NCBI GenBank assembly: GCA_025677605.1
Contig: GCA_025677605.1_4110.1
Length of the DNA: 64,000 nt
Reading direction: 5' to 3' (one strand)
Source of the DNA: a phage
This document shows positions 13,762 to 18,383 of the stretch, piece by piece (position 1 is the stretch's first letter; each line of letters opens with the position of its first letter). The notes beneath the pieces are model-generated. The model worked only from the letters and a program-made list of their open reading frames with translations. It searched no databases and was not told where the DNA came from. The position numbers were made by a program, and so were the translations under genes.

Positions 13762-14649
13762 TTGCATGGAGAAAGTATTATGTCAATGAACCCGTTAGCA
13801 AAATACACAAAAATCGAAGAAATTAGTACTAAACTCGTCACTAACAACATTTTCCAGTACAAAGATGGTGTATTGGGGAGCAAAGGCATTAAATGTGGTG
13901 TCTGTGCTCGTAGTGCTCGTGACGAAATGATGCTCAATACACCTGATATGTTACTCAATGGTAGTGCAGTGTCATCTGTTATCGAAAACTGTGTACCAAA
14001 CATTCTAAACGCAGATGAGCTTTTTGTCAATGATGTTGAGCAAATTCTTATTGCTATCAAGTTAGCATCCAAAGAAACCAGTTATGATGTCAATGTCGTA
14101 TGTCCATCATGTTCCAAAGAAGGCCGTTTTGAACGTGATCTTTCTTATCTATTGGAAACGGCAGAATCTTTTACTGAAATTCCTAGTATTGATCTTAATA
14201 ATGGTTTGTCTCTTCAGTTCAGACCACTTACTTGGAAAGAATATTCAGAGTTTTCTCAACGTATGTTAGCTGAACAGCAAAAAACTAAGTATCTTGAAAG
14301 TACTATTGATATTTCTGAAGATGATAAAATTAAAATGTTTTCTGAAGTATTTGAAAACATGGCACAACTAAACTTTGATATGATTGCTGGAGTTATTGAT
14401 AAGGTAATTACTCCTGATGGTGATGAAGTATCAGATAAGAAATTCATAAGTGAATGGTTAGGTACTCAATCAAAAGAAGTGATCAAGCAAATCAGAGAGA
14501 AAATGGATGAAGTACTAGAGATTGGTGTATCGCATACAATGGAAGTTGAATGTATTGAATGTCAGCATCAATGGGAACTTACTGGATTAAAGTATGACCC
14601 TACTCATTTTTTCGATCTCAGCTTCTCTTCTCAAACCCAGAAGAAATAA
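13762..14649 (+). CDS. Hypothetical zinc-ribbon protein (probable start 13780, MSMNP); possible C-terminal extension by -1 frameshift
   Basis: Three CxxC pairs (CGVCARS, CPSCSK, CIECQH); slippery T_TTT_TTC near the 3' end (see findings). Confidence 0.45.
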   Translation: MHGESIMSMNPLAKYTKIEEISTKLVTNNIFQYKDGVLGSKGIKCGVCARSARDEMMLNTPDMLLNGSAVSSVIENCVPNILNADELFVNDVEQILIAIKLASKETSYDVNVVCPSCSKEGRFERDLSYLLETAESFTEIPSIDLNNGLSLQFRPLTWKEYSEFSQRMLAEQQKTKYLESTIDISEDDKIKMFSEVFENMAQLNFDMIAGVIDKVITPDGDEVSDKKFISEWLGTQSKEVIKQIREKMDEVLEIGVSHTMEVECIECQHQWELTGLKYDPTHFFDLSFSSQTQKK

Positions 14650-14841
14650 AAGAACTTCTGGATGATATGGAGTTGAATAAATCAGATATTAAAAATGCCC
14701 TTATGGATGCTGCTGTTTATGTAGATAATGTCGATTATGCAACTCTACTTAATATGCCAGTAAATGACAGAGATATGCTTATTAAGGCATACAATAAGAA
14801 AGTAAAGAAGATGAACGAGAAGCACTAATACTCATAAGAAG

Positions 14842-14866
14842 CCAGCACATTGTTGCTGGTTTTTTT
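14842..14866 (+). terminator. Rho-independent terminator
   Basis: CCAGCA-cattgt-TGCTGG hairpin followed by TTTTTTTGTTTTTGTTTTTTGGGTTTTTT. Confidence 0.6.
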
Positions 14867-15123
14867 GTTTTTGTTTTTTGGGTTTTTTACTTACAAAGTA
14901 GATGAAAGAAATTATGATCTTAAAAGATTTATTCTTGAAGGAATTCATTTGATTTATATTGAACTCATCTAACTCATTTCATTCGTTAGCTGAAGAATAT
15001 TCGTTAACTACGTTAACTCATATTCATTTTAATATAATTATAAAGAACTTTAAATGATTTAATACTTGACGGGATTTGTTGAGGATATTTCATCCCCCCG
15101 CAGGGGAATGAAGATAATAAAAA

Positions 15124-15148
15124 AGAGACAATTAAGTCTCTGTTTCTT
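15124..15148 (+). terminator. Hairpin with T-rich tail (terminator-like) inside the ORF-free region
   Basis: AGAGAC-aattaa-GTCTCT then GTTTCTT; an adjacent hairpin TCATCCCCCC-gca-GGGGAATGA lies at ~15090-15112. Confidence 0.3.
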
Positions 15149-15683
15149 GACGCTGATGGCATCGGTATTATTGTATTGCGAATTTCTTAAAATTTAAACG
15201 TAATTATATTGTAAAAATATTAAGAACGAAAGCGGGTTGCTCTGTTTCTCTCTATCGCAGTCATGTGCAACGGTCGTCAGTCTTAAACATCCTGACACTC
15301 ACCTGAAAGTCTATACAATCAAACTTCAGGCTGTTTAATGAAATGAATCATCAAACTCCCTTAGCAAATCTGGTAAGGTGCGATCCTTATACATCTATCG
15401 AGGAACTCTCTGTATGCTTATCGGAGTTCTTTATTGAGCCGTGTCGCCGTGAGGGGTTCATAATATGCCCACATCTAACGGGTTTCTTTTGCTCATCGCA
15501 CTGTTGAACTGCTCATCTACCCTCTACATTTTCGAGTGGATTAGGTTCTAATTTATATGCATTTCTGCATTCAACAGGATTGTCAGTACTACATGAAACA
15601 TTATAGCACGCAATTTAAAAGTGTCTCAAAATATCTAATCTTTTTTATAAAAAAGTACTTAAAAATTTCTTAGGAATGTATTT

Positions 15684-15691
15684 CATAAATA
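15684..15691 (+). promoter_or_regulatory. Candidate late promoter (CATAAATA) for endonuclease VII-like gene
   Basis: About 32 nt upstream of ATG 15724. Confidence 0.4.
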
Positions 15692-15723
15692 TTTCATAAA
15701 CTAACTTAGATCTAAGGCACATT

Positions 15724-16215
15724 ATGAAACGAAGACTTAAAGATAGTAAGGAAGCTGCTACGTACAGAAATGAATTATTAAAAAAGCAAAAAGGTATTGA
15801 TCCTATAATCAAGGAACCGATTAAGAAACCAGTACTCGACCACTATCACTTCGAAAACCAGCATTGTAGAGAAGTTCTACAAAATGAGGTTAACGCATGG
15901 GAAGGTAAGGTGCAGAACTCTTTCAATCGATACTTGCGTCATTTAACTGATAAACCTCTTCATGAAGTACTAAGAAATCTGGCAGATTATCTTGAAAAGA
16001 ACAATAATATTCCACCAGAAGAGCAAGTGATTCATCACACGGCATTAACTGTGGATGTTAATAAGTTTAAAAGGCTCCCAGCAACGCAGCAAAACGCGAT
16101 TCTGGAAGGGTTAGGAGTTGTCCCTGGTAGCAACACTACTGCTCGTGTAAAACAGGCTAGGAAGCTTATTAAGGACGGCAAATTAAACATGTTAGATATA
16201 AAAAAAGGGAGCTAA
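15724..16215 (+). CDS. Endonuclease VII-like (T4 gp49-type) junction-resolving nuclease, lacking the zinc-binding cysteines
   Basis: VLDHYHF...AWEGKVQNSFNRYLRHL...LRNLADYLEKNNNIPP aligns with T4 EndoVII HLDHDHE...AAEGQMKHKFNRSGL...LENLLTYLKSDYTQNNIHP (from memory); 163 aa vs 157 aa. Confidence 0.6.
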   Translation: MKRRLKDSKEAATYRNELLKKQKGIDPIIKEPIKKPVLDHYHFENQHCREVLQNEVNAWEGKVQNSFNRYLRHLTDKPLHEVLRNLADYLEKNNNIPPEEQVIHHTALTVDVNKFKRLPATQQNAILEGLGVVPGSNTTARVKQARKLIKDGKLNMLDIKKGS

Positions 16216-16235
16216 GGCTCCCTTTATTCATTATA

Positions 16236-18383
16236 TTAGAAAATATCATCAAGAGTAGCATATTCAACAGTACTGAAACCGTCTTCTTTAACCACTTTAA
16301 GGATTTTTTCTGTTTTAGATAGTAATTCTTCTCTGTGAGATATTGCATATACGTTTTTACCACGTACAGCAGCCATATCCTGGAAGATTGACCATACTCT
16401 TAGAACACCACTTGAATCAAGACCCTGATCTATCATCTCATCTATGATAAGAATATTAATACTTTGATATAATGATTCATAAGTATCGCGGAAAGCACAT
16501 GATAATGCAATATTAACACGTGTTCGTTCTCCACGACTCAATTGTTTATAGTCAAAGTACTGTCCACTCTTCTCAATCTCAACACTAAGGTCATTCAAGA
16601 AGACCACATTGTGTTCTGAACCACACATATCAATATAGTACTGCAATCTGGAGTTCAAATATGAGATATTTTGTTCAATGATACGTTTACGAACATAACT
16701 ATCCTTATTGAGCAATAGTTTAACTAAGAAATCTTGGTGATTAGCCAATTTTTCAAGGTTATTGAAGTCAGTATAATCAATAGGAACCAACGAATCGGTT
16801 GTTAAAGTATTAATCTGACTAATAAACGTATTAGTTGTGTTCATTTCGCGTTCAAGTTGTTGAGTAAGTGAGTTAAAAGTCATTTCTAACTCTTTAACTT
16901 CTGATTTATTCAACGCATCTGGAACTTCCTTTACTTCTAATGCATCAAGAGCCTCATAAGAAGACATTAGTTCATCACGGTAGATGTTAATTTGTTCTTC
17001 CTCACTCTTTTTAATAAGTTCTTGAAGCTTATGGTCATGCATTTGGGCTTCGGTAAGGGTATTATAGAAAGTTACAGGTTTAGGGGGCATATCAAATATC
17101 TCAATTGCATTGATTTCATCTGATAGTGTTGCAATTTCCAACTCAACCTTACTTATATTTTCTCTGATTAGACGAATAGTATCATTAATCTTATCTTTTA
17201 TACCATTACCATGCTCATTATGCTCCAACTCTGATAAACAAAGTGGACATTTACTATCCTCAACTGATTTTAATTTCTCTTCTTCTGCTGTAAGAGATTT
17301 AATATGAGCATTCAACGAAAGATTTAGTGAATTTAGTTTCTGTGTTTTGAAATTCTTTTGCAACTGATTATCTTTTAAGATAGATTCTAGTTGTTTCCAC
17401 AGTTCCATTTCTTCATGGTTTTTTAATTCAGATTCAATATCAATAGTTTTTAATTTATCGATACTATGCTGAATAATATTTTTATTAGTGGCTAGTTCTC
17501 TATCGTACTGATCATATTTCACTGCAAGTTCTTGAACTCTACGTTCGAGTTGTAAACGTTTAGAGATGTGTAGAAGTGCTTCTTCTTTCTCTTCAGCAGC
17601 AGCATATAAATCAGAAAATACAAAAGTACTGTATACTTCTAATTCACTTTTTAGTTTTTGCACTCTATTAGCCTTATCAATTTCAAACTTATTAGCCTGT
17701 TCCTGTAAGGTTTCAATGCTGCGTTGAATGCGTTCATTACTTGCTGCAACTGTTTCAATTTTAAACTTCTCTTGGTCAGCTAAACGTTTTGACTCTTTGT
17801 TCATATCCTTTAACAGTTCAGCTTTCTCTGTTAATTGGGTAATACCTAATAGCTCTTCAATCATATCACGTTGTTTCTGTGAAGAAAGAGCAAGGAAAGG
17901 TTCAACGTTAGCATTCAGTACTACAATGTGCTCAAAAAGTAATTGAGAGATTCCTAGAATTTCATTTAGATCTTCTTGTGTATCTTTCTTTTCACCTCTT
18001 GATTCATCGAGAACTTTATTGTCCTGACCTAGAGTGATGAAATTGAAATATGTGGGACTACGCCCACGCTCAACAAGGTATTGTATACCGTCTTTCTCGA
18101 ACTCAACGGTAACTTCACAATTTTTAGCATTTGTTTTATTAACTAAGTTTGGAATTTTAATATCGTTACCAATACTTTTTCCAAATAGTCCAAAAACAAG
18201 ACCTTGAATAATTGCACTTTTACCTACACCGTTACGACGACCAGAACTATCACCACCTTCAATGACAGCATCATTGTTTTGACCGAGTACTAAAGATATG
18301 TCAGCACCATTTAAATCAATAACTTGTGGTGCATTACCAAAGGAAAAGAAATTCCTCATTGTTATACGTGTAATGTTTAACAT
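16236..18383 (-). CDS. Recombination nuclease ATPase subunit (gp46-like, SbcC/Rad50 family)
   Basis: N-terminal Walker A GRRNGVGKSAI, long central coiled coil with CPLC zinc hook, C-terminal signature/Walker B region (LSRGERTRVNIALSCAF...ILIIDE) and H-loop. Confidence 0.85.
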   Translation of the reverse strand: MLNITRITMRNFFSFGNAPQVIDLNGADISLVLGQNNDAVIEGGDSSGRRNGVGKSAIIQGLVFGLFGKSIGNDIKIPNLVNKTNAKNCEVTVEFEKDGIQYLVERGRSPTYFNFITLGQDNKVLDESRGEKKDTQEDLNEILGISQLLFEHIVVLNANVEPFLALSSQKQRDMIEELLGITQLTEKAELLKDMNKESKRLADQEKFKIETVAASNERIQRSIETLQEQANKFEIDKANRVQKLKSELEVYSTFVFSDLYAAAEEKEEALLHISKRLQLERRVQELAVKYDQYDRELATNKNIIQHSIDKLKTIDIESELKNHEEMELWKQLESILKDNQLQKNFKTQKLNSLNLSLNAHIKSLTAEEEKLKSVEDSKCPLCLSELEHNEHGNGIKDKINDTIRLIRENISKVELEIATLSDEINAIEIFDMPPKPVTFYNTLTEAQMHDHKLQELIKKSEEEQINIYRDELMSSYEALDALEVKEVPDALNKSEVKELEMTFNSLTQQLEREMNTTNTFISQINTLTTDSLVPIDYTDFNNLEKLANHQDFLVKLLLNKDSYVRKRIIEQNISYLNSRLQYYIDMCGSEHNVVFLNDLSVEIEKSGQYFDYKQLSRGERTRVNIALSCAFRDTYESLYQSINILIIDEMIDQGLDSSGVLRVWSIFQDMAAVRGKNVYAISHREELLSKTEKILKVVKEDGFSTVEYATLDDIF

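Follow-up and report, generated by a model that had tools for sequence, protein, structure and literature searches.

The ORF-free gap and its setting

The locus described here raises the question of what is carried by a long stretch of phage DNA in which no substantial protein gene can be recognized. In the window (the whole stretch of 64,000 nucleotides that was analysed), no ORF of 60 aa or more is found between positions 14650 and 15723, i.e. over 1074 bp, the runner-up gap being 132 bp long. The window phage is an Asteriusvirus (121Q/PBECO4-type jumbo phage) and shares 98.9% identity with Escherichia phage A4 over positions 14600-16000. The counterpart gap of A4, which carries no annotation, is bordered by the EndoVII gene on one side and, on the other, by a 53-aa gene located after that of the baseplate hub. 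An initial annotation of the window had singled out this gap as devoid of substantial ORFs, with a GC-richer core and a terminator at its upstream border (14842-14866). All three observations are confirmed: GC content is 0.36-0.43 at 15100-15600 versus 0.25-0.30 in the flanks, and a terminator lies at nearly the same place. The features that border the gap on this side are the following.

14836-14865, plus strand: terminator after the 53-aa gene (terminator scan)
14867-15063, no strand: AT-rich flank, downstream of the RNA gene proposed below (composition, similarity extents and HMM match limits)

The terminator has hairpin symmetry (A-rich on the 5' side, a T-run on the 3' side) and could stop transcription in both directions, including read-through from the RNA gene. 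The flank is conserved from about 14938, in Asteriusvirus only, and falls outside the core of the family described in the next section.

A family of conserved non-coding elements in giant phages

Window positions 15064-15629 correspond to one member of a family of conserved non-coding elements. Matches to the gap sequence occur in about 70 giant phage genomes, to which they are confined among isolated phages (roughly 71 genomes, all giants of the RaK2/121Q type). The core (about 15058-15563) is 68-72% identical to copies in Erwinia, Serratia, Pectobacterium, Yersinia, Cronobacter, Salmonella and Klebsiella phages, the full range across phage genera being 68-90%, with four to five matching places per genome. 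In the Yersinia phage fHe-Yen9-04, the best match is situated about 85 kb from the EndoVII gene of that phage, in another ORF-poor gap. Alignments of orthologs and paralogs display long invariant blocks, and between these lie hairpins that vary in sequence but keep their pairing. Conservation in related phages had been proposed initially as a check on this region, together with the possibility that an ordinary gene present in relatives is disrupted here. The check finds the same non-coding element in related genomes; since it is this element and not a gene that they carry there, the pseudogene reading fails.

Conserved blocks served as probes to collect copies from IMG/VR, and all loci gathered by then were searched with an HMM (nhmmer). 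This search returned 62 matches among these loci, including a full-length copy in RaK2, and none in contigs that match the block probe by chance only. A single nhmmer match is present in the window, at 15064-15584, and neither blastn nor nhmmer detects a second copy in its 64 kb. Four copies are found in 121Q-type phages and four in TH47, where they are spaced by 56-116 kb; with a probe of two blocks, which is more specific, five are counted each in GAP32, BF, CBB and Yen9-04 and at least two in RaK2. All copies of one genome share the same orientation.

Clustering of 63 copies reveals orthologous paralog groups common to several genera, one of which is represented once, and only once, in each of ten genomes. 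As these groups span genera, the paralogs are ancient and individually maintained. Copies from Citrobacter and E. coli cluster with jumbo-phage copies, which points to exchange between lytic giants and temperate elements. Judging from these sequence comparisons, the window copy is the EndoVII-adjacent member of the four to five ancient paralogs that all RaK2/121Q-type giants retain.

Non-Asteriusvirus copies (for instance L030, L039 and L033) contain about 130 nt more of conserved sequence downstream (columns 30-165 of alignment A3), left of the TGACG box. Compensatory changes are seen in two hairpins of this stretch, GCCATTC..GAATGTC and GTTGTTCTGTAC..GTACTGAAACAAC. At the corresponding place, 14975-15060, the window sequence is different.

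Predicted promoter and transcript ends

The signals predicted for transcription of the element all lie on the minus strand.

15600-15629, minus strand: sigma-70-type extended -10 promoter (scan; 11/12 consensus plus TG), with -35 TTGAGA at 15629-15624, an 18-nt spacer, TG at 15608-15607 and -10 TATAAT at 15605-15600
About 15593, minus strand: predicted transcription start
15116-15593, minus strand: predicted primary transcript, structured core, about 478 nt (nhmmer, alignment A4 and covariation)
15116-15141, minus strand: intrinsic-terminator-like hairpin AGAGAC-UUAAUU-GUCUCU (15141-15124) followed by UUUUUUAUU (terminator scan)
15064-15115, minus strand: 3' module past the terminator-like hairpin, with the CCCC/GGGG hairpin (15089-15113) and a second CGUCAA box (15066-15071)

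Of the 49 unique phage copies, 48 have a perfect TATAAT and 47 the TGn; these occupy a constant place in the alignment and are preceded, at a distance of 16-19 nt, by a -35-like hexamer. This is the arrangement of a bacterial sigma-70 extended -10 promoter (TGnTATAAT with a -35 at 16-19 nt), kept at a conserved position. No conserved promoter is found on the plus strand, where the hexamer ahead of the invariant TGACG lacks the final T. In several copies the terminator of the upstream gene is found about 70 nt ahead of the promoter or overlaps the start site. One paralog subfamily (L052, L060, L057, L087, L089, L092 and L019/L044) shows a strong hairpin and U-run 2-6 nt past the -10. It looks like an insulator, since upstream read-through would be terminated there and the hairpin would be truncated in transcripts that start from the RNA promoter.

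Among copies, the core after the promoter extends over about 430-510 nt and ends with a hairpin and U-run. In most copies this signal lies 410-490 nt past the -10, and its stem shows compensatory changes; divergent subfamilies have a different hairpin at the end. A G+C-containing hairpin with a U-run directly behind it, recurring at a constant spacing on the strand that is transcribed, characterizes an intrinsic terminator, which is predicted here from the sequence. Beyond it, the CCCC/GGGG hairpin, in which a U.G pair on the minus strand is a C.A mismatch on the plus strand, and the second CGUCAR box are conserved in both phage and bacterial copies. In view of this conservation past the predicted terminator, either partial read-through may yield an RNA of about 530-560 nt, or block 15064-15115 may act as DNA. 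Two hairpins had been assigned to the GC-richer core in the initial annotation; both are real (15089-15113 and 15124-15141), but they are located at the 3' end of the RNA and not in the core.

A conserved fold with a pseudoknot and an optional module

Thirty-seven predicted minus-strand RNAs were aligned (alignment A4) and a consensus was derived with RNAalifold. Its 80 pairs are formed in 93.0% of cells versus 77.3% in shuffled alignments, and 52 of them show two-sided changes versus 36.0 +/- 2.2. The covariation score is 0.426 versus 0.148 after shuffling, a value reached in none of 500 shuffles, and register-shifted controls, which preserve phylogeny, give 0.057-0.089. When the pseudoknot is included, the consensus comprises 86 pairs in 19 helices (93.4% paired versus 77.2% in shuffles), 57 pairs being changed on both sides versus 40 +/- 2.4; the score rises to 0.439 versus 0.153 (0/500 shuffles; register-shifted controls 0.057-0.083). 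Compensatory changes hence exceed both shuffled and register-shifted controls, as is the case for a structured ncRNA. Folded as a single sequence, the window RNA reaches -110.7 kcal/mol (z = -2.33). The elements of the fold, from 5' to 3' on the RNA, are listed below.

15557-15570, minus strand: 5' variable hairpin AUGCA-GAAA-UGCAU with a GNRA tetraloop (hairpin in 35 of 37 copies, sequence variable)
15403-15577, minus strand: 5' domain, helices 15571-15577/15501-15506, 15534-15544/15517-15524, 15491-15495/15435-15439, 15478-15481/15447-15450 and 15423-15429/15403-15409 (covariation)
15303-15330, minus strand: hairpin hpB, stem 15321-15330/15303-15312
15313-15319 with 15170-15176, minus strand: pseudoknot between the hpB loop (AUUGUAU) and a downstream strand (AUACAAU), alignment A4 columns 416-422 with 570-576
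15170-15297, minus strand: 3' domain, helices 15293-15297/15275-15279, 15255-15259/15177-15181 (stacks on the pseudoknot strand), 15248-15252/15228-15232 and 15223-15226/15184-15187 (encloses the optional module, 15188-15222)

The 5' domain corresponds to consensus helices 1, 2, 5, 6, 7 and 8, with two-sided changes at most pairs, and the 3' domain to helices 14 and 16-19, which are 90-100% paired and show compensatory changes. The pseudoknot helix, which stacks on the neighbouring helix, is 99.6% paired and five of its seven pairs have changed on both sides.

An optional hairpin module with a conserved UACAAUAUAG apex occurs at either of two sites (alignment A4 columns 337-400 and 517-558) in 35 of the 37 copies. 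It is found at site 1 in 26 copies and at site 2 in 13, four copies having both and two having neither. The window copy carries it at site 2, its 121Q ortholog lacks it at both sites, and phage A4 (98.9% identical overall) has 11 extra nt within the element. The peripheral parts thus turn over fast even between close relatives. Swapping of peripheral elements between positions is a typical trait of RNAs whose tertiary fold is defined, such as RNase P and group I introns. A small RNA, a cis element or small proteins had been envisaged initially for this gap. The RNA option is the one that these results favor, in a modified form: the predicted RNA is large (about 480-560 nt), lies on the minus strand and has its own putative promoter and terminator.

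Strand of the RNA

The RNA is quite probably encoded by the minus strand. This assignment leans mainly on the promoter, the terminator and the gene context, since the wobble-pair statistics are only mildly supportive. The consensus folding energy is equal on the two strands, and over all pairs predicted on both strands 53 wobbles are of the minus type versus 68 of the plus type. For interior covarying pairs, about 42 wobbles are of the minus type versus 15 of the plus type (38 versus 14 in an earlier alignment). In 16 of 18 copies the CCCC/GGGG hairpin folds much better as minus-strand RNA (-16.9 versus -11.5 kcal/mol in the window), and so does the hpB stem in 17 of 17. Some hairpins fold better on the plus strand, through invariant G.T pairs devoid of covariation. 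GNRA or UNCG loops close the 5' variable hairpin in 7 of 34 cases on the minus strand versus 0 of 30 on the plus strand. As to gene context, the RNA strand accounts for 78% of long-ORF bases in TH47, where three of the four copies are embedded in gene arrays of the same strand, and in prophages the RNA and the integrase are on the same strand in six of seven loci. That the region is a conserved multi-copy unit, with transcription predicted from the opposite strand, had escaped the initial annotation.

Coding potential

One ORF of the gap had been pointed out previously and does exist:

15343-15507, plus strand: 54-codon Cys-rich ORF, antisense to the RNA gene, a chance ORF

It is intact in only one of the 49 unique copies, being frameshifted in phage A4 and without a start codon in 121Q and TH47. 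Differences are distributed over the three codon positions as 5/4/3 and 20/13/14, with no third-position excess. The longest ORF per copy has a median of 66 codons and no positional conservation, and indels are not multiples of three. The element thus contains neither an in-frame conserved ORF nor a third-position bias, and the small-protein option that had been raised with this ORF is abandoned. An SD-like UAAGGGAG is a chance resemblance, no small ORF being formed with it.

Several deposited genomes have small hypothetical proteins (24-68 aa) annotated over the element, for instance RaK2 ORF245 and Yen9-04 g347 and g348. Annotated examples are at L018:2858-3064 (RaK2) and L017:3084-3236 (Yen9-04), with others in the SHEFM2K, JP4 and E9.1 records. 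These calls are probably spurious.

Copies in bacterial chromosomes and metagenomes

The two-block probe identifies nine bacterial assemblies, all with full-length homologues (E = 1e-70 to 1e-109). The carriers are Serratia fonticola (complete chromosome), Serratia sp., Citrobacter amalonaticus, Enterobacter chinensis, Silvania and Buttiauxella, together with two Enterobacteriaceae and a contig of 2.8 kb that was binned as Clostridium. In the bacterial loci the element is single copy and lies between an integrase, either a large serine recombinase or of the tyrosine type, and a CI-like S24 repressor, an order that is a prophage layout. These copies retain the 3' module, and eight of ten have the extended -10 promoter. 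Metagenomes provide 83 additional stretches, and plasmids none.

In S. fonticola the element follows the integrase and two ParB/RepB-like genes, beside the host genes rof and tilS. In strain GTA-SR07 (L136:4775-5490), a tandem pair of 87-aa ROF (Rho-modulator) genes is found beside this integrase/ParB/ParB/RNA island and tilS. The duplication of rof suggests that the island integrated into or beside rof and brought a replacement copy along. Only two of 5426 complete E. coli genomes carry the element, which there occupies an unannotated 1.4-kb gap in an integrase island of roughly 10 kb adjoining ffs. The island of strain LR-29-1 (L140:4791-15341) also encodes DUF4326 and DUF488 proteins, a dual-OB-domain protein and a small serine recombinase, and its integrase is interrupted by an IS3. 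It may correspond to a satellite or a defence island.

Comparison with known RNAs

A cmscan of window positions 14000-16500 against Rfam 15, on both strands and at E <= 10, returned noise only, the best match inside the element scoring 16.7 bits versus a threshold of 45. Three bacterial loci scanned at the Rfam gathering thresholds gave no match. The families covered include ROOL, GOLLD, OLE, HEARO, RNase P, tmRNA, 6S, group I/II introns and int-alpA, none of which matched. ARAGORN found no tRNA or tmRNA gene in the whole window, and the initial statement that the gap holds no tRNA cloverleaf or group I intron agrees with both searches. The element is also absent from the genome papers on these phages and the recent ncRNA-mining preprints that were searched, a survey outside which most subscription journals lie; the RNA family is apparently undescribed so far. 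Several short resemblances were discarded. The tmRNA-like GACGGGAUUUG on the plus strand and the RNase P-like ACAGAGCAACCCGC are due to chance, and the only CsrA-type motif is a single CAGGAUG, which does not constitute a conserved sponge. Within the RNA, GGCAUAUUAUGAA (15457-15469) is identical at 12 of 13 positions, in the same sense, to the RBS/start region of EndoVII, GGCACAUUAUGAA (15716-15728). This similarity is probably fortuitous since it is not conserved in other copies.

To our knowledge, very few bacterial or phage RNA classes exceed 400 nt and have a complex conserved fold (rRNAs, RNase P, group I/II introns, tmRNA, OLE, GOLLD, ROOL, HEARO and raiA), and each of those known to us has proved, or is expected, to be biochemically unusual. 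The T4 stable RNAs C and D, of about 120-140 nt, are processed from a tRNA cluster and await a function. Like the window RNA they are encoded by T4-related myoviruses, but they do not form a multi-copy set of structured paralogs.

In kind, the nearest analogues seem to be ROOL and GOLLD, large ornate phage and prophage RNAs that form RNA-only multimeric cages as seen by cryo-EM (PMC12286853). Like the predicted window RNA, they exceed 400 nt, have an intricate fold and an undetermined function, and are independent genes of phages or prophages. Both also combine a conserved multi-helix architecture with variable peripheral elements. The window RNA does not belong to either family, however, as their Rfam models give no match in sequence or structure. 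Its hosts are Enterobacterales phages rather than the Bacillota, rumen and lake taxa of ROOL and GOLLD, it occurs as four to five diverged paralogs per genome, and no regular association with tRNA genes is seen. In the related Pseudomonas jumbo phage PA5oct, ncRNA001-004 are ORF-free transcribed regions of 236-619 nt defined by RNA-seq (PMC7318152). They resemble the window RNA in lying in ORF-free regions of a related giant phage and in having no function determined. PA5oct ncRNA002 and ncRNA004 are not homologues, nhmmer giving no match even at E <= 10.

Interpretation and alternative explanations

Taken together, the sequence data suggest, with a probability that we put at roughly 0.78, that the minus strand of the gap carries a stand-alone gene whose product is a large ncRNA, highly structured and acting in trans. 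Host sigma-70 RNA polymerase would start at about 15593 from the near-consensus extended -10 promoter, and since this promoter is of the host type, expression is expected to be early and independent of any phage factor. Covariation shows that the RNA has about 19 helices, a pseudoknot between a loop and a distant strand, and a peripheral module that can occupy either of two sites. Transcription would terminate at the hairpin and U-run (about 15116), or extend by read-through of the conserved 3' module to about 15064. The RNA would then work in trans by means of the three-dimensional shape it adopts, serving as a scaffold or RNP component, as a ribozyme or as a decoy. Action in trans is preferred to that of a leader because no co-oriented gene follows in the window and the neighbours differ between copies.

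Part of the same evidence could be read differently. Among the other explanations, a replication-origin unit deserves most attention, although it is unlikely. The transcript would then resemble ColE1 RNA II or a T4 ori, forming an R-loop or primer at the downstream block and AT-rich tract, with several origins around a 350-kb genome. The four to five dispersed and co-oriented copies per genome (56-116 kb apart in TH47) are compatible with this, as are the conserved DNA block and AT-rich tract past the RNA and the presence of the element in small integrase islands, one of which adjoins ParB/RepB-like genes. With RNA II the window RNA further shares a structured transcript of about 500 nt, a host sigma-70 promoter and the absence of any element-encoded protein for its synthesis. 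However, a strong hairpin and U-run, a predicted intrinsic terminator, separates the RNA from the downstream block, no conserved antisense promoter of the RNA I type is found as would be expected of a ColE1-type primer, and there is no homology with RNA II. The GC skew has no turning point at three of the four TH47 copies, and at the fourth it coincides with a switch of coding strand; co-orientation is accounted for by the predominant coding strand. A replication or packaging cis element, one of the options raised initially, thus receives no positive support from the GC skew and coding-strand profiles of TH47. Moreover a primer would not require an ornate fold, a pseudoknot and a swappable peripheral module. 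Still less probable is a repeat that acts in DNA, be it a site of recombination or protein binding, a cruciform or a mobile repeat of the MITE type. Its multiple copies, the wobble strand symmetry with equal folding energies on both strands, the CGTCAR direct repeats around two hairpins and the proximity of integrases in bacteria would fit such a repeat. Yet terminal inverted repeats and target duplications, the marks of a MITE or transposable element, are absent, and the copies are syntenic orthologs across genera rather than recent insertions. The element is carried by lytic phages too, with no adjoining integrase seen in the fetched loci. Long-range nested helices and a pseudoknot, spanning more than 150 nt with compensatory changes, and a perfectly conserved promoter directed into the element also argue against hairpins acting in DNA.

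A cis-regulatory leader or attenuator, or a plus-strand transcript serving a neighbour such as EndoVII, is very improbable. In the window the element does lie directly upstream of EndoVII, a plus-strand gene, and some helices fold better on the plus strand; at other copies, however, the neighbours are unrelated and in the opposite relative orientation, the plus strand has no conserved promoter, and no minus-strand gene comes after the RNA in the window. The least credible explanation is one or more decayed or small protein-coding genes, for which the 54-codon ORF and the small hypothetical genes called by some annotators could be invoked. That ORF is intact in a single copy of 49, and the non-triplet indels, the lack of codon periodicity and the shifting positions of the longest ORFs speak against it.

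Within the preferred reading of a structured trans-acting RNA, we tentatively propose, as one possibility among others, that the family is a new class of large ornate RNA with its own biochemical activity, which could be that of a ribozyme, of an assembly made of RNA only or of an anti-defence decoy. Such an RNA would be needed early in giant enterobacterial phages, kept there as four to five specialised paralogs, and borrowed by temperate elements beside their integrase/immunity region. The family is tractable: its promoter is simple and of the host type, the predicted length fits in vitro transcription and cryo-EM, the natural paralog sets allow deletion one by one, and the carriers include the cultivable E. 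coli phages A4, 121Q, PBECO4, phAPEC6 and fEgEco12. This RNA family would account for the largest "empty" regions of these giant phage genomes.
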